Source: Ignavibacteriota bacterium
GTDB lineage: Bacteria; Bacteroidota; Ignavibacteria; UBA10030; SZUA-254
Assembly: GCA_016212665.1 (NCBI GenBank)
Contig: JACREZ010000032.1
Coordinates: forward strand, 65,566 to 129,565
Length of the DNA stretch: 64,000 bases
Direction: 5' to 3'
Part shown: piece after piece, positions 3,016-60,883 of the stretch
How the letters are laid out: every line of letters begins with the position of its first letter
Numbering within the stretch: the stretch's first letter is position 1
The notes under the pieces: model-generated
Seen by the model: the letters and a program-made list of their open reading frames with translations, nothing else
Databases searched by the model: none
Told to the model about the DNA's origin: nothing
Program-made: the position numbers and the translations under genes

Positions 3016-3750
3016 TCACGTTCCCTTAGCTGCCTTCTTTGCCGCACGCGTTGCCGCCGCTTTCTTCTTTCCTAAGCGTTGTGCTTTCGTCGGACCGGAT
3101 AATACTTTCTTCCCCAACTTCTCCAACAACTGCGGATGCGTGTACATCAATTGTGCTTCTGCTGTCTTCACAAATGCAGTAATCCATTTCGCCAAGTTCG
3201 CGAAGGCGGTCTTCTTATCTTTCGTTTGGCTTTGGGTCGTACCTACTGCACTGCTCTGTGCAGAACTGAGAGCGGCATAGACTTCCACTTCCGCTTGTTC
3301 AGCAACGAGCCGCTCCCCATTGTAGCCCCATTTTGCCAGTTCGGTTTTGATGGTGTCTGTCTCTAACGAATTTTTATAGGCGATACGTGCGGCGTTGAGA
3401 AACGTGGCTTCGGTCCTTGGCACTGCAGAATTAAACCCAAGTATTTCAATATCGGTGGGGGTAAGATGCGCGAGTGAAGTCTTCTTCAAACTCATATACT
3501 TTTTATGAATTTCCAACTGCTTGAAGTCCTCTGCTTTCGACGCTTCCTTCTGTTTTGCTTTCACCGACTTTTTCGTCGCTGTACTGGCAATTGCGATGTT
3601 GTATAACTCCCAACCTTCTCCCATCCGCTCATCGGTATAACCGCAGTTCACGAGTAAGGGGCGCAACTCGGCATCTTCGCTCCCGTTTTTCAGGACGACA
3701 TATGCCTTCGCTAATTGCTGTTGTTCTGATTGACTTGCATTTGTTTTCAT
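3016..3750 (-). CDS. hypothetical protein with Lys/Ala-rich C-terminal tail
   Basis: 244-aa ORF in a region of higher GC. The C-terminus is ...RLGKKKAAATRAAKKAAKGT. No recognisable catalytic motif. Confidence 0.5.
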   Translation of the reverse strand: MKTNASQSEQQQLAKAYVVLKNGSEDAELRPLLVNCGYTDERMGEGWELYNIAIASTATKKSVKAKQKEASKAEDFKQLEIHKKYMSLKKTSLAHLTPTDIEILGFNSAVPRTEATFLNAARIAYKNSLETDTIKTELAKWGYNGERLVAEQAEVEVYAALSSAQSSAVGTTQSQTKDKKTAFANLAKWITAFVKTAEAQLMYTHPQLLEKLGKKVLSGPTKAQRLGKKKAAATRAAKKAAKGT

Positions 3751-3787
3751 GTGTTTTCCCTTTGTTATTGTTTTGGTTATAATTGAT

Positions 3788-4035
3788 TTACATTTGAACT
3801 ATCTTACTTTCTGATTAAAAAAGCCAACATTGGACTATCTTTACGTTACAACACTGCGAATTGACATTACAATGCAACGAAACAACTCAACATTACGTTA
3901 TCTTTGACTTACATTACTTCATCTTCGAGTTACATCGCTTTATCTTGACATTACATTGCTCTATCTTCGAGTAACTTTGCTTTATCTTCACGTACCATTA
4001 CTTTATCTTTGATGAACATTAGAACATCTTCCGTC
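3788..4035. repeat. degenerate tandem array of about 12 units with about 21-bp period, consensus near TTACATTGCTTTATCTTSAS
   Basis: Units can be read off at 3909-3929, 3930-3949, 3950-3971, 3972-3992, 3993-4013 and 4014-4033, with degenerate copies to the left. Confidence 0.6.
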
Positions 4036-4211
4036 CGCATTGAGACATCGTACATCAACAATGGTTCATCTTCCCACTCCATCACATCACATGGGATGAA
4101 AGCGACCATGATGGTAAAAAGAACAGACGCAATGGAAACAAGTTTGCTTCCGTTGTTGAAAACATATTCTCCAATGCACGGAAATATAAACATGATGTCA
4201 AACAAAGAAGT

Positions 4212-24000: not shown

Positions 24001-24815
24001 AGAGTGTTTCCGGATTGACAACGTCTGCTATCTTCGGTTATGAAGATGGTTACTACATTACCGACACCATTAAACCGATGCACGGATATTGGGTGAAAGC
24101 ATTACAGGCAGGAGAACTGATTCTTTCTCAATCGAACATAGTATTTCCAAAATCTTTGAGTGTGAAGGAACAATTAGAACAACTCAACTCACTCACATTT
24201 GAAGACGCACGGGGAAAGAAACAAACACTCTATTTCGGAACTACGTCATCAAAATTCAACAGTAATCAATTCGAGATGCCCCCCACTCCTCCCGGCGGCG
24301 CATTCGATGTCCGATACTCCACCAACAAGTTCGTCACATTGTTTGATAAAACACATCCGGCAGAAATTCCCATCCATATTTCTTCAGAACACTATCCAAT
24401 CAAAGTCTCATCAAAAATTATTGACGCTTCCCAAAACATCTCCGTAGTAATTGATGGATCAAAAACTCAATTAACATCAATAACCAATGTACAAATCGTC
24501 AATCGTCAATCGTCAATCTCAATCATCAATACTACTTCTCCCGATCTCCCTAAGCAAGTAGTTTTGAATCAGAACTATCCCAACCCCTTTAATCCATTGA
24601 CAATTATCAATTATCAATTATCAATTCACAATTATGTAACATTAAAGGTGTATGATATTCTTGGAAAAGAAATTGCAACCTTAGTTGATGGAAAACAAGA
24701 AGCAGGTTCTCACTCAATCAAATTCGATGCAAAGAATCTCGCATCCGGAATTTATTTGTACAAACTAACGGTCGGTTCGTTCACCGAAACAAGGCGGATG
24801 ATAGTATTAAAATAA
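21090..24815 (+). CDS. T9SS C-terminal-sorting-domain protein with multiple BNR/Asp-box beta-propeller repeats (paralogue of 4212..7634)
   Basis: N-terminal signal-anchor, many S/TxDxGxTW repeats, a shared middle module (WNLVSLH, GYWLKF, FEMPPTPPGGAFDVRY) and the C-terminal T9SS domain KVYDILGKEIATLVDG...GIYLYKLT. Confidence 0.85.
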   Translation: MFEIYSWHMKLYHQTKFLFSVASSIVCFVLAFFIIIQNSNSFKNEQEEEGHALDAFNWWYGQRENSDGMIASQSLLKAHRYASSKMKREETKRQPNGKTVQWESIGPNNVGGRILSLAIDPSNTNILWAGSASGGLWKSTTKGIGADAWEYVNTGFPTISISAITIDPANPNVMYIGTGEISYYHFPLIGTPGARASYGMGILKSTDAGATWNTTPLTFTFSQITAIQKIVLNPLNTNTVYVATSEGVYKSADAGQTWSVSNSVVMTMDLVMSPSDTSLLISSHGNLNSSPNPGMYRTTDAGATWTLITNYSPTFSDFGRTALAFSPSNPQIVYAGISSGSTRTLLGLYKSSDSGISWTKVSSTNYVGSQGWYNNVVAVNPQDENVVYCSGIDLYESISGGANLTRKTDWTHGYMYYIAPGGIEGDSLYAHADHHAIAIDPTDPNIIYAGTDGGVFQSTDGGETFSGRNGGLVTTQFYPGFANSFLNENIAFGGLQDNGVLKYLGTTAWNKVDGGDGGWCAVDPRSDNIVFDEYVYLTISKSTNGGLTFRSISASLPTGSSNANFIAPFVISPSNPDILYAGTKVVYKTTNGGDSWFATNGGNWFNGTQVSAIGVSWLSSDTLMASTGTGSYNSSPFFQIFVSTNGGQNWSNVTGSLPNRYPTDIHFDYSNSKTVFLTYSGYGTSHVFKTTNLGQTWLNLTSNLPDVPTQSIVTDPENPEDIFVGTDLGIYHSSDGGEFWNDFNAGMPLTMITDVTISNITGILRASTFGNGLYQRSLPRVPVLNLKYPKNGETLIAGKEYQIKWTQRYCSNVDIEYSSNNGTDWQTIASNLPANTDSLSWTVPFDSTETAKLRFIHLSDSSVIDSTQYFSIIIAPHVLSDWNLVSLHLSVNDASKLNLFPTALSEAYRFEQGYKISDTLYNGFGYWLKFEKPQHVFIAGDSIFTDTVQVNARWNIIGSLSVPISVNQITESVSGLTTSAIFGYEDGYYITDTIKPMHGYWVKALQAGELILSQSNIVFPKSLSVKEQLEQLNSLTFEDARGKKQTLYFGTTSSKFNSNQFEMPPTPPGGAFDVRYSTNKFVTLFDKTHPAEIPIHISSEHYPIKVSSKIIDASQNISVVIDGSKTQLTSITNVQIVNRQSSISIINTTSPDLPKQVVLNQNYPNPFNPLTIINYQLSIHNYVTLKVYDILGKEIATLVDGKQEAGSHSIKFDAKNLASGIYLYKLTVGSFTETRRMIVLK

Positions 24816-29033: not shown

Positions 29034-29373
29034 CGTAAGTGCCTGACGCTCCAGCCTGCCTGCCGCAGGCATGGCGTCCATTATGAGGTATCGTGTACAT
29101 CTGCCTCTGCCACAAGAATACTCCATGATGCTACAAGTAAAATCAATTTTCATCCTTCCGCTTCTTATTTCTTTCATCCTATTTTCTATTTGTAACATCT
29201 TCATTTTGGTTTCTTCCTTCCTGTTTTTGATTAGTTTCAACACGTTTTCAATTTCTTTCATACTCATTTTTATTTGTTATTACCTATTTCGTATTAGTTA
29301 AATACTAATTTTTGTTTATTGCATACTATTTTCTATTTTTAGCATCCTCTATTCAAATTAATCAAACAACATT

Positions 29374-29727
29374 ATGCTAACTCTCGACCTAAAAGCAATT
29401 TGCAAACTTCGTGGCATTGATAGACCATACTCCTTTTTAGTAAAAGCGGGAATTTCTCCACAATCTGCAACAAAGTTAATAAACAGCAATACCCGCATTT
29501 TCCGCTTAGACCACATCGAAATCATTTGCGACAAACTTAACTGCACTCCCAATGACCTCCTTCGTTGGAAACCGGATAATGGTTCCACCCTCACCGACAA
29601 TCATTCTCTGACAAAATTATTACGGGATGAGAATTCATTCCAATTGCTCGAAACGTTAAAGGCTATACCATTAGAACAGTTAAACCAAATCGCAACACTC
29701 ATTAATCAACAAAAAACAGGCAAGTAA
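29374..29727 (+). CDS. XRE-family helix-turn-helix transcriptional regulator
   Basis: Cro/C1-type HTH: ICKLRGIDRPYSFLVKAGISPQSATKLINSNTRIFRLDHIEIICDKLNCTPNDLL. Confidence 0.65.
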   Translation: MLTLDLKAICKLRGIDRPYSFLVKAGISPQSATKLINSNTRIFRLDHIEIICDKLNCTPNDLLRWKPDNGSTLTDNHSLTKLLRDENSFQLLETLKAIPLEQLNQIATLINQQKTGK

Positions 29728-31850: not shown

Positions 31851-32413
31851 ACTAACTCAAGTTGGCCGTTTAATAATAATTGCTAAGATAACTCAATATT
31901 GCCACATGACCATAAACAGTCACGCCAGTAAAATCAAGTCCAATAAAATCGGACGACATAAAACAGTCCCGTTTACGAGGCTTACTAATCATTTATGGTA
32001 ATACTACAGAAAATCGGAATAAACTAATCCTCTTTAAAGCGTCACGTTCCCCTTTCTGAGGAAACAAACATTGGAACACTATTGTTACCTTAGGGATTAT
32101 TACCAACTCATCTCGAAAGCATAACTATTCATTCTCATTAGGAACGATGGACTTCAAGAACACATGAGGGTAAGCTCAACTAAATCCTTCCGACAAATCC
32201 CTCCAGACCATCTGAATAATATTCGCACTTTGGAAAGAGAAGCCGATATCGTAATTCAGCTTCGTGACCATGTTGCACAACTATTACTTTTGGTTTTAAT
32301 TCCCGAGCCTGATAGGCTCGGATAAACAAAGAACGAATCCCGATATCTTCCTGTGGTAAAGAATAACCAATTATTACCCATGTGTTTGAAGACCGAAGAA
32401 ATTCGAGGGAATG

Positions 32414-45015: not shown

Positions 45016-45103
45016 TTCACATCAAAAAGAATTGTCAATAGCCAATTACGAATTATCAATTGTCAATTCACCATTCACCATTCACCATTTTCTTTCCACT
45101 ATT

Positions 45104-45721
45104 TTACTGCACTCTGCTCACCGCCGGTGAAACGGTTCCCTTCCCTTTATTATTCACCGCCTGCACACGGTAGAAATATCGAACACCCGGAGTTACATCA
45201 TCATCAATAATTGCAATAGTTGTAGATTCCGTCAGATACTCCCATTTATCGGGAGCAATTGCCTTCGGGTTTTCAGATACTCCCCGCTCCCACTTATAGA
45301 GTTCTGCATTATCGTCCGCTTCGACAAGACGGATTTTAAATCCGATTCCATCCGAATCATCTCTAATAGTGAGCAGAAGCGGCTTTGCCGGCTTTTCTAA
45401 TGAAACACGAGGTCGTTCCCACTGCAAACCATATTCAGTCCACTTTACTTTCTCAGCCGCATGGATTCCCCTGATTCGATTATCCGTTTCATCTGCTTTT
45501 GCGTTTATTTGAGCAGCAAGTTCACGCCCTTCTTGAACTGTTTGACGATAAAGTCGTTTATATTCGGCAGCTTGACTATCCTTTGCTTGCAAAGCATCCA
45601 TATCTGCTTGAAGAGATTCGAGCGTATCAGGCTGTCCATTCCATTTGTCCTGATTCGCTTCGATTCCTTTTTTCTGTTTTTCTCTTCTTTCGTATGCTAC
45701 TCGAAGATATTTTAATTCCAT
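45104..45721 (-). CDS. hypothetical protein with C-terminal fibronectin type-III-like domain
   Basis: 205 aa, GC-rich. The C-terminus ...VTPGVRYFYRVQAVNNKGKGTVSPAV is an FN3 signature. Confidence 0.55.
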   Translation of the reverse strand: MELKYLRVAYERREKQKKGIEANQDKWNGQPDTLESLQADMDALQAKDSQAAEYKRLYRQTVQEGRELAAQINAKADETDNRIRGIHAAEKVKWTEYGLQWERPRVSLEKPAKPLLLTIRDDSDGIGFKIRLVEADDNAELYKWERGVSENPKAIAPDKWEYLTESTTIAIIDDDVTPGVRYFYRVQAVNNKGKGTVSPAVSRVQ

Positions 45722-45825
45722 AGTTTCTCCTTTTTTATATAGTTGTCGTTTTTAGATTTATTTGAAGAATTATTAGAAAATATTTAGCAATTTTACATCT
45801 ATTATTCAAAATTTCACTACTATTT

Positions 45826-46077
45826 TTGGGAATTTCACTCGTGAAGTTCCCAACTTCACGCCTGATCTTGGGAACTTTACTCGTGAAGTTCCCAACTTTA
45901 CCACTGTTCTTGGGAACTTTACTTCTGAAGTTCCCAACTTTACCACTGTTCTTGGGAACTTTACTTCTGAAGTTCCCAACTTTACCACTGTTCTTGGGAA
46001 CTTTACTTCTGAAGTTCCCAACTTCATCGCTGTTTTAGGGAACTTTGCGCTTGAAGTTCCCTACATCATTCCTGTAT
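45826..46077. repeat. tandem array of six 42-bp units (plus a degenerate 7th), each containing the palindrome GGGAACTT-N8-AAGTTCCC
   Basis: Units begin at 45826, 45868, 45910, 45952, 45994 and 46036. Units 3-4 are identical and unit 2 differs from them by one base. Confidence 0.9.
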
Positions 46078-46370
46078 TTGATAACTTAACCACCGATTTT
46101 CCCTATTTCATTATTGGAGTGGGAAATTCCATAGCCGTTGTTTCTCACTGCGCTGTTCTTTTCAGAACGACATTTCTTATGTTTCCTTTTTACAGACAAC
46201 TCCGGTAAATATTTCATAAAAAAATGTTACTGTTTCCATGATTTGTTGGAAAACTGCAGGAAACTCAGGGAGAGTTTGAATACTCTTTCTGAAATATCTT
46301 TACAAAATAATTGGTGCGAAGTACAACATTTCATTGACTTTGTGAAGGTAGGAAAAAAAACAATACGGCG

Positions 46371-46396
46371 AATCACCCCTGAGGGTGATTTTTTCT
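46371..46396 (+). terminator. rho-independent terminator-like hairpin (AATCACCC-CTGA-GGGTGATT + T6)
   Basis: Perfect 8-bp stem followed by TTTTTT. Confidence 0.6.
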
Positions 46397-46774
46397 CACA
46401 ATGATAGAAAATTGTTAACTCTTTTTCATACTCCTTAGTGGGAATGACAATCTTGGGGCTCCTCGTTATTACAATTCGTCATACACACGTTGTGTTTATT
46501 TCAAGTATACTGTTACTCAAGTTGACCGTTAACAAACAATTGTCAATAATAACTCAACTTTGCCGCATGACCGTAAACAATCGCGCTCTATATGTCAAAA
46601 GGCTGTCCAAAAAGTCCAAACAATGGTAGGACAGACATTCCCCTCTGTCGAAATCAATTGATATTCAAAGACATGACAGGCACGTCACATGGTGATGCCG
46701 TTGGCAAATGCCTGTCCTACTTACTTTCTGGACAACCTCTCCCTGAAACAGTCCCACTTAGGGGCTTGTGAGAT

Positions 46775-46819
46775 GTAGCGTTATCATTTATGGTCTACGA
46801 CTCGTAGAGTAACGCTACA
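46775..46819. repeat. nested palindromic element (outer stem GTAGCGTTA/TAACGCTAC, core TCTACGACTCGTAGA)
   Basis: Same core palindrome as at 24866, 26910 and 44984. Confidence 0.7.
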
Positions 46820-46853
46820 GAAAAGCGGTCAACTTGAGTACTTTTAATACAAG

Positions 46854-46888
46854 AAAAAAGCCCTCAACCTTTCACAAGATTGAGGGCT
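46854..46888 (-). terminator. rho-independent terminator of groEL
   Basis: Minus-strand reading gives GCCCTCAA...TTGAGGGC followed by TTTTTT. A second small hairpin (cccgcc-tttg-gcggg) lies at 46926-46946. Confidence 0.7.
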
Positions 46889-46961: not shown

Positions 46962-48907
<1,946 letters not shown>

Positions 48908-51001: not shown

Positions 51002-51754
51002 TGGTGAACGGTGAATTATGAATTGTCAATTAACAATTCACCATTGACAATGAATATCAATCAGGCAAATACCATAAAACACAAAAACCTCCATCATCCC
51101 TTTTGCACCGGGACAATAGAGGTCTAACTCTAAATCTATATCCAACACGAGACCCCATTTTGTCTCAATGCCGGGTGATGGAAAACATCTGCGCATCGCC
51201 CAACCCGCTTTACGATGAATTGCTTCCGTACTTTCCCAATTCATCGCAAGCATTTTCAAAGAACAATAACTACGTCTTAAAAACCTATCATAATTTGCAA
51301 AATATTTTTCTCAATGTCAAGCATAAAATGGAAAAAGTTTACTGTTTACTGAGTCAAATCTCATATCCCACATCTCACATCCCAAATCATTTCACTCCAC
51401 AACCCCTTCCTCATCCCTCACCTCCCACATCCCCGAAACAATTATTAAAATATTTTCATCAGACTTTTACAGACTTTTGTTTAGTCCATTCAAGTAACTT
51501 TTAAGACCTGCTGACTATATCCAATTTCATTGAGTCGCTACACTTTTTTTGAGGCATTCAGTATCTCGATAGAAACAAGTGAGCCCTCTTTATCGAAATC
51601 TGCTATCACACCTGGACGTATTTCATCCGAATCATCAATTGTGTTGTCTAATAAAACAATGGAAAGGCTATGTTCCTATTGTTTAACTCTATCGAAAATT
51701 ATCATTTGCGACACACAATTGCCTAAATTACTTTAAATTCGAATATTTTTTCTC

Positions 51755-52060
51755 AGAATTCAGACATTTTTTCAGAAAATACGCGTATAAAATTATTTTA
51801 TTCGCGTATTTTCTGAATTTATGTCCAAAATAAATTATTTTCTTTCCATATTTTCTGAATTATTTCGGGTATAAATTCCTTTTTTTTAGGAATAAATTTA
51901 TTTTATTCCCAAGTTTTCTCCTTTTATTCCGGAAATAAATAATTTTTCTTCCGTGTTTTCCCATTTATTTCAGGCATAAATTCCTTTTTTTCAGGAATAA
52001 AATCCTTTTCTTTCAGAATATATTTATTTTATTATCTTGTTTTCAGTTCTTTTTTCAGAA
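51755..52060. repeat. AT-rich block dense in TTTCAGRAAT-type motifs (at least 10 copies in both orientations) with several perfect hairpins
   Basis: For example TTCAGAAAATACGCG-N17-CGCGTATTTTCTGAA is a 15-bp perfect stem. Other hairpins: GGAATAAA-TTTA-TTTATTCC, TTATTCCGGAAATAA, CAGTTCT-TTTTTC-AGAACT. Confidence 0.8.
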
Positions 52061-52123
52061 CTAGTCAGCCAACTGATAACTGTTAACTGAAAACATCTCA
52101 CCACTCATATCCCAAATCCCATA

Positions 52124-54229
52124 TCATTTCACCTCAACCACCACTTCCTCATCCTTCACCTCCCACGTTCCGGAAACAATTTCTTCTTTCCCGCGAACGA
52201 GAATCCATGAATGGTCGTAGGGCATCAACTCCGGTTCGGCTTTGTGACTGAGCGGCGCAATCCAACACATGATGCCGTTTACGATGTATGGATTTTCTAT
52301 TGCCTGAATAAACGTGAGCGAACTATCAAACGTCGCTTCATGGTTGATGACAATCGAATCGCCATTGAATTGATGTGGAAACTTTTGCATCTGTTCGGCG
52401 ACAACACTATTCTCGTTCGGTTTGCCGTAGAGAAACACTCTGTCGTTTTGCAAATCTGCAAGAGAAATTGCCGTGTCCGCTTTGATAGTGAACGACCAAC
52501 CGGCGATATCCATTTCCGTTGAATCATGCTGCGCGCGTTGCATCAGATATTCTGTATTACTCAACGTCCCGACAATCATCACTCCATCGGAAGGCTCGCG
52601 CAAATCTCCGAGACGGACGGGAAGTTTTCTGAACTTGAGCACATCGCCGTTCGGGTCGAGCCGTGCGAACGTTGGCTTTTCGTTCGTGAGCGTTTCAAAG
52701 CCGACATCGTTCTTGTAATTCCCCCCGCTATCTGCGCCAAGCCAGACACGAGTCTTCACTGTTTCAGATGGCGTTTCAATTCCAACATCAACAAAGGTCG
52801 TAAACTTATCATACCCGACGATTCGTACACGTCCTTTTGTCTGCCACTTGTTCTCTTTCTGTGTTGCCTTCGCGTTGTAGATTTTCATTCGGGGAATTCC
52901 TTTCCCCTTCACCCACTGTTCAAAAAACCAATCGAACTTTTTGCCCGATAATTCTTCAACAAGGTTTTGAAACTCTTCCATCGTCACAGTCTTTTCTGAA
53001 AATCGTTTCGCATACTGATGCAACATTTCAACAAATAATGAATCACCCAAAAGATTCCTCAGCATGTTATGGACGAACGATGCTTTGAGATAATGCGTCG
53101 GCATTGCGCGTAAATCCGCGCGTTGCTGAAGCGGAATATCCAATCCTTTGAGCGAGCGGGTGATAAGCGAACGAAGCAGAGGATGATTCACCAACGAATC
53201 GCGCACGGTCATCTTCCCGCACGACTCGCTGAAGAGCCGCGCTGAGTATTCACACATTCCCTCCGAAAGAAACGCGGCATCTTTATCTTCGATGAAGACG
53301 GTGATGGGCCACCACTGATGAGCAACTTCATGCGGCAAAATCATCGGATACTTGTTGAATTCGTCTTCCGTTTCAAACGCGAGTTTCTTTACAAGAATCA
53401 TTGAAGGAGTCGCGATTGCAAGCACCGCTTTTCCCGCGACCCAATTCTCCACTTCAACGATGGATAATTTGGGAAACCTGTACGGAGAGAAAATCCTGTT
53501 GTAATACTTCAGCACAGAGTCGGTCAGCGAAAGTATTCGTGCCGCATGTGCTGAATCTTCTTCAAACAAAAATGTGGAAATCGGAGCGACGCTTCCTTCC
53601 TTCTTTTCCTGTTTGAATTTTCCCGCGCAAATCCAACCGAGCATCGGAACAGGTTGATTCAATTCCCACACAAATACATTCACGCCACCGACAGAATCTT
53701 GACTCATTAACTTCCCCGGCGCAACCGCTTGCCAATCTGATGGAACTTCGATGGTGAATCGGGCATTCTTCACGTTGCGGTTACCGCGCGGAAGAATCTC
53801 CTCATCTCTCAACACTGCCCGCTCCGAACCGAGGTTTGAATATTCCGTCCGGAAATTCATCCGCGCTTCATAATCGAACACAACATCAAACACTGTGTCG
53901 GGAATATCTTCTACCTTGACTTCACCTTTCGTTCGTTCGTAATCAGCATCTTCACCGTTAAGCCATACTTCTTTCAGTTTGAAAAACGGTGCGAGACCGA
54001 ATTCAATACTCTCTGCTTTCCGGTTAAGAATTCTAACTGTGACAGTATCCGAACAAATTATTTCCTGAGAAGAAGGAAAGAGTTGAATACGAACCTTATG
54101 AGAAGTTATTTCAAAATCTTTCTTCTCAACTTCCTGAGCGAACGAAGTGAATAAAAACAGGAAAGAGGTTGCCAACAATTGTGACAACCTCTTGAGCAAT
54201 TCGAAATTCACTCTACGAGCCGTTGGCAA
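52124..54229 (-). CDS. M1-family zinc aminopeptidase (aminopeptidase N-like)
   Basis: HEVAHQWW followed 18 residues later by LSEGMCEY (HExxH-x18-E). N-terminal signal sequence. Confidence 0.8.
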   Translation of the reverse strand: MPTARRVNFELLKRLSQLLATSFLFLFTSFAQEVEKKDFEITSHKVRIQLFPSSQEIICSDTVTVRILNRKAESIEFGLAPFFKLKEVWLNGEDADYERTKGEVKVEDIPDTVFDVVFDYEARMNFRTEYSNLGSERAVLRDEEILPRGNRNVKNARFTIEVPSDWQAVAPGKLMSQDSVGGVNVFVWELNQPVPMLGWICAGKFKQEKKEGSVAPISTFLFEEDSAHAARILSLTDSVLKYYNRIFSPYRFPKLSIVEVENWVAGKAVLAIATPSMILVKKLAFETEDEFNKYPMILPHEVAHQWWPITVFIEDKDAAFLSEGMCEYSARLFSESCGKMTVRDSLVNHPLLRSLITRSLKGLDIPLQQRADLRAMPTHYLKASFVHNMLRNLLGDSLFVEMLHQYAKRFSEKTVTMEEFQNLVEELSGKKFDWFFEQWVKGKGIPRMKIYNAKATQKENKWQTKGRVRIVGYDKFTTFVDVGIETPSETVKTRVWLGADSGGNYKNDVGFETLTNEKPTFARLDPNGDVLKFRKLPVRLGDLREPSDGVMIVGTLSNTEYLMQRAQHDSTEMDIAGWSFTIKADTAISLADLQNDRVFLYGKPNENSVVAEQMQKFPHQFNGDSIVINHEATFDSSLTFIQAIENPYIVNGIMCWIAPLSHKAEPELMPYDHSWILVRGKEEIVSGTWEVKDEEVVVEVK

Positions 54230-55255: not shown

Positions 55256-55491
55256 AAGTTCGGTGTGAAGTTAGGAGAAAATCCACTCATAAACAATTTT
55301 CATTACGGTTATTTGTTCGTGTTTGAGAATGATACTCAGAATGTCATTGGTCATTTGTCAATGGTCATTACTCAATATGTCGTGTGTACAAATGACAAAT
55401 GACTAATGACCAATTACAAATGACCAGAAGTTTTGAAACTTGCATCAAATCATGTTATATTCAGCCGCTTAAAATTCAGACCCGAACTTCC

Positions 55492-56391: not shown

Positions 56392-56716
56392 TATGCAATA
56401 TGTGTTGCTGAGATATGAGATATGGGATTCTTGCCCGACTTCTAACAATGAACGTTTGGGTTTAAGAAATTGAGAATACATTACACTCGCACATCACATA
56501 TCACATATCTCACATCTCTTCTCAAAACATTCTCCCACGCACCCTGCACCCCGCTCCCCTGCATTCATAAAATGAGATGAAAATCCAACTACGAGAACGC
56601 GCGTAGATATTTTTTATTCCCGTCTGATTTTCTTAATTTTGCACCACAAAATTTACCGCGCCCTCGACTGATTTGTCAGGGCGTTTATTGTATCTGAAAA
56701 CAACGAAAGACCTCCC

Positions 56717-60796: not shown

Positions 60797-60883
60797 AACT
60801 CATCGGTTACAAGTTACAGGTTACACGTTACTGTTACCCAATCATCAATCGGCAATCGAAAATCATCAATCATAAATCTTTAT

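Follow-up and report, generated by a model that had tools for sequence, protein, structure and literature searches.

Long upstream arrays with a 21-bp quantum beside a small FN3-type gene family in Ignavibacteria and Bacteroidota

To our knowledge, regulator sites placed two helical turns apart are known only as a handful per promoter. The LytTR-type sites recognised by AgrA, ComE and PlnC are paired 9-bp direct repeats with a 12-bp spacer, and so have a 21-bp period. Repeat arrays also occur in partition systems, where centromeres such as parC sit upstream of the gene for the binding protein, and in parC-parMR and tubC-tubRZ the upstream array is both the operator and an assembly platform. 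At the Bordetella ptx promoter, six dimers of BvgA occupy one DNA face at 22-bp intervals, the last of them abutting the -35 region, and in BvgA rows weak individual sites act together (PMC7250471). BrickBuilt of Porphyromonas gingivalis is a 23-nt minisatellite or MITE, found at 19 genomic sites, that is promoter-active and bounded by a leader and a tail with inverted ends (PMC4596501). In type III toxin-antitoxin loci, repeats of 31-62 nt in 1.9-5.6 copies are separated by a terminator from the gene, whose toxin product is an endoribonuclease (PMC3401426). Our search of the literature found nothing on 21-bp arrays in Ignavibacteria and Bacteroidota, and no account of conserved, long promoter-associated arrays (8-18 units) in which a 21-bp quantum is the sole invariant across two phyla and which recur before two unrelated protein families.

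We analysed a stretch of 64,000 nucleotides (hereafter the window) from an Ignavibacteriota bacterium, in which a tandem array with a 42-bp period adjoins the gene for a small FN3-type protein (Table 1). Tandem Repeats Finder assigned 45813-46068 a period of 42 bp (score 337; 6.1 copies with 88% matches) and also reported rows of 21 and 126 bp there. The motif GGGAACTT-N8-AAGTTCCC is present in six copies at an exact spacing of 42 bp (45828, 45870, 45912, 45954, 45996 and 46038), against a chance expectation of 0.28 and with none of 100 shuffles reaching six copies, and AACTTTAC repeats at 21-bp intervals. A preliminary description of this DNA had reported six near-identical 42-bp units with degenerate copies, an inverted repeat and an internal direct repeat in each unit, and an array end about 105 bp upstream of the gene; all of this is confirmed, the first full unit beginning at 45826 and the ATG lying 105 bp away at 45721. 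No further copy of the motif was found elsewhere in the 64-kb window, with up to three mismatches permitted. The interval of 45826-46130 given for the array holds as described, but in a 21-bp register on the gene strand the array is longer, comprising 18 units from ~46140 to ~45763, with degenerate 21-bp units flanking the six near-identical units on both sides.

On the gene strand, the 21-bp consensus of the window array is ...CAg..gTaAAgTT...AA, and the columns CAG..GTAAAGTT...AA are kept even in the degenerate end units. A GGG/CCC triplet alternates between successive 21-bp units, which accounts for both the 42-bp period and the palindrome. The third and fourth 42-bp units are identical, and the second is nearly so. 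A weak AT-rich inverted repeat of 17 nt (82% complementary) lies either side of the array, at 45770-45786 and 46206-46222. The array is contiguous, and the segments between the palindromes are themselves repeated; as had been stated previously, it is not a CRISPR array, having no unique spacers between its units, and its neighbours are groEL, groES, an amidase gene and genes of unknown function, with no PADLOC match.

Table 1. Features of the array and the adjoining FN3-family gene in the window
Feature	Coordinates	Strand	Remarks
Gene for 205-aa protein (N-terminal helical hairpin and C-terminal FN3)	45104..45721	-	adjoins array
Shine-Dalgarno AAGGAG	45727..45732	-	5 nt ahead of ATG, read from sequence
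Three promoter-proximal degenerate 21-bp units aaatagtagtgaaattttgaa, taatagatgtaaaattgctaa, atattttctaataattcttca	45763..45825	-	in register; overlap promoter-like site
Candidate sigma-70-like promoter GTGAAA-16-TAAAAT	45790..45817	-	9/12 consensus match; prediction only
Core array, six 42-bp units	45826..46077	-	each of two 21-bp sub-units, GTAAAGTTGGGAACTTCAGAA and GTAAAGTTCCCAAGAACAGTG (gene strand)
Three promoter-distal degenerate 21-bp units	46078..46140	-	21-bp register; conserved columns kept

Both hexamers of the predicted promoter coincide with the GTRAAR core of successive proximal 21-bp units; this promoter is a consensus match only, in phyla whose promoter types are poorly known. 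By eye, no sigma-54 promoter was seen. The array context is chromosomal, between groES-groEL (46962-48907, minus strand) and an amidase gene. The groEL terminator is followed by ~730 bp without a convincing gene and then by the array, and 3' of the FN3 gene come an Amidase_2 gene and others of the same orientation.

Among described systems, the arrays can be set beside the rows bound by BvgA, a member of the NarL/FixJ family, at Pptx and Pfha, in which the units likewise stand two turns apart; the BvgA rows extend upstream from the -35 region. The BvgA rows consist of 3-6 sites at 22 bp that are not tandem duplications of each other and whose binder is known, whereas the window array has up to 18 near-identical 21-bp units and no LuxR-type gene nearby. 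With LytTR sites, the arrays share direct repeats, a 21-bp period and the lack of an internal sub-repeat; LytTR sites however come in pairs, and the arrays described here in rows of 10-18. No LytTR gene was found among the genes scanned around the arrays of the window.

The FN3 protein matches the Pfam fn3 family below threshold (E 3e-5). Its AlphaFold model, built with 19 homologues (mean pLDDT 92), consists of a long helical hairpin (residues 4-27 and 34-86) and an FN3 sandwich (117-204), and Foldseek searches of PDB and BFVD with this model returned generic FN3 domains only. No signal peptide was seen by eye. The family is compact, at ~204 aa, with two invariant motifs, DDxDGxGF and, at the C-terminus, RYFY...VSRVQ; about 45 full-length members were counted among the best 150 representatives (50% clustering). 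The protein has no match in PADLOC and only a marginal, uninformative one in PHROG, to a single family of unknown function, and no relatives of the family were found in IMG/VR. No partner gene is conserved with the FN3 module across ~40 loci. The gene had been characterised as GC-rich and foreign in appearance, and neither point stands: its GC content is 0.439, compared with 0.41 for the window overall (range 0.30-0.48) and 0.474 for the adjacent groEL, and it has a paralogue on the same contig and homologues across the same phylum.

We compared the window array with the upstream DNA of 40 FN3-homologue loci from GTDB species genomes (Ignavibacteria, Chitinophagaceae, Flavobacteriales and Cytophagales; all MAGs) and of 41 further loci from JGI metagenomes. 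Several of the GTDB genomes hold 2-4 paralogues of the family, and many loci sit at contig ends. Among 55 loci with at least 300 bp upstream, a strong self-similar segment precedes the gene in 38, and the best lag is 21, 42, 63, 84, 105 or 126 bp in 36 of these 38; all lags from 8 to 130 were tried, so that about 5% would be expected to be multiples of 21 by chance. The 224 control stretches, each 900 bp long and taken from these loci, included eight with repeats and none with a multiple-of-21 period, and multiple-of-21 arrays were not seen in ~400 kb of DNA flanking the loci. No sub-period of 7, 10 or 11 bp was found within the arrays, indicating that the repeat unit is 21 bp. About half of the arrays end 60-135 bp before the ATG, and the others 150-530 bp away. 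The quantum is constant across loci at 21 bp, and the sequence of the array varies from locus to locus. Dyad symmetry at the 21-bp level (p<=0.05) was detected in just one of 36 related arrays; thus, the common element is a 21-bp direct repeat, and the palindrome is particular to the window array and its close relative. Arrays with an exact multiple-of-21 period, placed before one small FN3-type family in Ignavibacteria and Bacteroidota, apparently form an undescribed class.

The same quantum was found elsewhere in the window. All of its long-period repeats have periods that are multiples of 21, including three more arrays at 3787-4088, 29105-29362 and 51718-52034. The first of these, with ~14 units of 21 bp (consensus ...g.aaTGt.a....aagat), precedes a gene at 3016-3750 on the minus strand for a 244-aa protein that matches no Pfam family and has a tail rich in Lys and Ala at its C-terminus; its family is unrelated to the FN3 family. 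Homologues of this protein were preceded by 21-bp-period arrays in all four loci that we examined (contigs L044, L046, L048 and L049); these arrays end ~75-135 bp before the start codon and have their own sequences, some in GC-rich DNA. The occurrence of one quantum before unrelated protein families points to DNA geometry or to a common machinery, and not to an RNA partner specific to one protein. The regularity of the 21-bp quantum is unexpectedly strong and extends across phyla.

We investigated the divergence of the arrays between related loci. The closest relative of the window locus, L002, encodes a protein that is 79.5% identical (75% in coding DNA) and also has a 42-bp array; its consensus and the 42-mer of the window array agree at only 23 of 42 positions, for which comparison with shuffles gives p=0.006. 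A BLAST comparison of the two loci found no similarity 5' of the gene, the 730-bp gene-free stretch included. Two paralogues from a single MAG (L008 and L009), which are 86% identical and have similar leaders, share ~12 of 21 array positions in the same register, as counted by eye. To judge from these sequences, the arrays outpace their genes in divergence and are homogenised internally, with period and register kept. The unit number varies among orthologous arrays. The near identity of inner units, together with the fast divergence of orthologues, indicates turnover by unequal recombination or slippage in steps of 21 or 42 bp.

Sequence constraint can nonetheless be traced within groups of arrays. 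With up to two mismatches, AAATAGNNCTATTT occurs at 2.9 copies per kb upstream of the genes and at 0.145 per kb elsewhere across the loci; its copies are spaced by multiples of 21, and the copy nearest the gene is found at ~-73 to -97 in at least nine loci, which come from different genomes. Profile alignment placed this 14-bp motif in ~13 arrays, in register 15-20 modulo 21 relative to the ATG. The window array is without the AAATAG motif (z=0.7) and belongs to a separate sequence group, as do others, such as a TTCTGCA group. In a clade that includes L034 and L040, the arrays end more than 330 bp from the ATG; these two loci carry conserved leader blocks between -130 and -1 (for example ttctttccac...ccgctgta...aaatttgcgaa), and the long leader may hold a conserved element.

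We tentatively propose, as the most likely explanation, that the array is a set of phased sites for an oligomerising DNA-binding regulator, which would cooperatively set the activity of the FN3-gene promoter, and we give this reading somewhat less than an even chance. Approximately 18 sites, one for every 21 bp or two turns of B-DNA, would all lie on one face of the helix; a sequence-specific regulator would bind each unit and oligomerise along the DNA; and the row of sites, beginning ~420 bp before the start codon and extending into the -35 region, would set promoter activity in a cooperative manner. To hold more than ten sites on one face, a period of 2 x 10.5 bp is needed. The proposal draws on the period of two turns, the conserved columns, the shared 14-bp motif, the run-in to a promoter-like site, the precedent of BvgA, the retention of organisation in homologous arrays that diverge in sequence, the equivalent layout before the unrelated 244-aa family, the LuxR-type genes beside some related arrays, and the negative results for curvature, coding and terminators given below. 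We infer from these features that a protein binds, that it oligomerises and that the predicted promoter is the real one, with the row acting in either activation or repression. Of the three readings previously offered for this array, an operator array is thus the best-fitting, although the emphasis then placed on the palindrome, with dyad symmetry in one of 36 arrays, does not carry over.

Candidate binders are found at some of the related loci. Genes for LuxR/NarL-type HTH proteins lie directly beside the arrays in six of them (L009, L014, which has two such genes, L017, L019, L032 and L035), and we regard the proteins as candidate binders there. Those of L014, L017 and L019 are ~0.6-1.6 kb upstream of the FN3 gene, and those of L032 and L014 are downstream. 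The proteins of L014, L017, L019 and L032 are atypical LuxR-type proteins that combine a receiver-like N-terminus with a GerE-type HTH, and in one clade their genes keep synteny with the module of array and FN3 gene. The regulators beside all six arrays belong to the same family as BvgA. No LuxR-type gene was found in the window, only receiver domains elsewhere, and no DNA-binding gene adjoins its array among the genes scanned.

Several findings stand against phased regulator sites. Arrays of 12-18 sites far exceed known operator or activator rows in length; identical adjacent units resemble recent amplification, as in a neutral minisatellite; and about half of the arrays stop 180-530 bp short of the ATG. 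Moreover, as there are several unrelated motif groups, one conserved regulator cannot serve all of them, and binding specificity would need to co-evolve with the sites. A wider form of the same idea, which we consider rather doubtful, is that members of the FCB group, and possibly of Acidobacteriota, inherit long two-turn-quantised minisatellites with particular small-protein genes as autonomous modules, and that these arrays bear a protein filament. In one version, the product of the downstream gene may itself form the filament, so that every module would recognise the array that it carries, with array and protein co-evolving. Were a filament-forming regulator to bind, the arrays would provide a natural system in which cooperative assembly on one face of DNA is translated into promoter output, and in which the co-evolution of site arrays and their binders could be followed.

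Most of the remaining weight goes first to a tuning of expression by copy number, which is compatible with phased sites, then to a repeat RNA, and then to a sequence-independent structure. In the first, the array would be a tuning or contingency minisatellite, in which slippage alters the copy number among members of a population and FN3-gene expression is set by how many units there are; phased sites could be what is counted. The identity of the third and fourth units, with the second nearly matching them, the differing unit numbers of orthologous arrays, and the only other assembly of the window locus, a Logan contig that ends inside the array, would all suit such a process. Against it, four related loci, each assembled independently 2-6 times from different samples (three as pairs, one as a set of six), do not differ in length and have 0-1 mismatches over 1.0-1.25 kb. 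The preliminary suggestion of a slippage-prone contingency locus has thus found no support so far, and we regard tuning as unlikely. As steps of 21 bp preserve the helical phase, an on/off switch through spacing is not possible.

An improbable alternative is that the array is transcribed as a repeat RNA, either a row of leader hairpins or an RNA partner of the downstream protein akin to those of type III toxin-antitoxin systems. Like toxIN, cptIN and tenpIN, the arrays are tandem repeats before a small gene, autonomous and locus-specific (PMC3401426), and modules of repeats and small gene in shifting neighbourhoods, with several paralogues per genome that each have their own repeat sequences, resemble ToxIN-type loci. 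The window array also folds strongly as RNA (-97 kcal/mol, z=-9.9), which is due to its palindromes; as most arrays are without dyad symmetry, they would form no hairpins. Type III systems have a terminator between repeats and gene, whereas a terminator-like site was found in five of 36 loci here, which is about background, and none between the window array and the FN3 gene. The units are shorter and far more numerous, with up to 18 copies of 21 nt (in the window array, counted otherwise, six of 42 nt plus degenerate ones). The protein, a helical hairpin with FN3, does not have the fold of a ToxN/AbiQ-like endoribonuclease. Nor would protein-specific RNA assemblies predict one 21-nt quantum before two unrelated protein families, and the array had no match in an Rfam scan, in which a tRNA alone was matched.

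A similarly small chance attaches to a structural element that acts independently of sequence, such as bent or unusual DNA or a landing pad for nucleoid proteins, which would boost or insulate the promoter. The conservation of the period with a sequence free to vary is what such an element would show, and a 21-bp repeat sums any intrinsic bend in phase. We estimated curvature with a wedge model, using parameters after Bolshoy et al. 1991, which performed as expected on its controls, at 0.30 for phased A-tracts, 0.996 for out-of-phase tracts and 0.96 for random DNA. By this measure, however, the arrays show no excess of curvature over shuffled units that were repeated in the same manner (median percentile 0.495), and the window array is essentially straight, with an end-to-end to contour ratio of 0.93 compared with 0.91 for shuffles. 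The conservation of specific columns and of a specific motif also argues against sequence independence.

We consider it very unlikely that the arrays are selfish or neutral repeats, MITE-like minisatellites without a dedicated function. They are intergenic, evolve fast and are homogenised within each array, and the window array is flanked by the weak 17-nt inverted repeat described above. BrickBuilt, a minisatellite of the same superphylum with promoter activity (PMC4596501), shares with them an intergenic, tandem and spacer-free arrangement in a related phylum. However, BrickBuilt is one sequence at 19 sites, whereas the arrays combine a 21-bp quantum with a locus-specific sequence and a link to a gene family. 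Each array has its own sequence, the 64-kb window has no second copy of the motif, and a metagenome collection gave no exact match to two of the palindromes spaced 42 bp apart. Across two phyla, the arrays accompany one gene family and are absent from the ~400 kb of flanking DNA, and a neutral repeat would not have kept to multiples of 21 bp in 36 of 38 arrays.

Iterons of a replication origin, one of the readings previously suggested, or a partition centromere are scarcely credible, for although the unit size falls within the iteron range, the context is chromosomal beside groES-groEL, no Rep, ParA, ParM or ParB-like gene or other replication or partition gene was found among the flanking genes scanned, a 6-kb query around the array matches plasmid records over groEL only, the family is absent from IMG/VR, and the array differs from parC and tubC in having no NTPase partner and a unit of 21 bp compared with 11-12 bp.

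Two further candidates were rejected. The first was a coding sequence of heptad repeats: open frames are equally frequent on the two strands (40 and 40), ORFs are called on either strand, and codon periodicity is absent from the substitutions in the window array (chi-square 1.4). The second was an invertible promoter, for which the flanking inverted repeat is only weak and AT-rich, and no recombinase was found among the genes scanned.

We additionally noted several other repeats in the window. The array at 29105-29362 is a weak 21/42-bp array (~61% matches) that stops 11 bp short of the start of a Cro/C1-type HTH gene (29374-29727, Pfam HTH_26). That at 51718-52034, with periods of 21, 42 and 105 bp, is an orphan: on neither strand does a gene follow it directly. 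Two copies of a 104-bp direct repeat (80% identical; 51341-51443 and 52079-52181) stand on either side of it, one of them overlapping the 3' end of an M1 peptidase gene, in what looks like an insertion or a local duplication. The window also contains many short tandem repeats with units of 7 or 14 bp and a different heptamer in each (for example 2907-2961, 24494-24635, 45043-45089, 55343-55426, 56478-56516 and 60805-60878); several of those checked are intergenic, and the repeats resemble the STRR repeats of cyanobacteria.

The gene-free stretch at 46140-46860 contains a canonical terminator-like hairpin on the plus strand (aatcacccctgagggtgatttttt, ~46365-46392). Two of its segments resemble other DNA: one of 72 bp (46515-46586) matches 31855-31925 at 79% identity, and one of 52 bp (46743-46794) matches L039:1788-1840 at 87%. 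A small RNA or a short repeat element may lie within the stretch. Finally, the arrays leave traces in assemblies and annotations. Short-read assemblies tend to stop inside them (for example L001:1-192), and automated gene calling yields spurious ORFs of 100-180 aa with heptad repeats across them, as at L003:39-341, L044:2383-2889 and L046:2561-3058.
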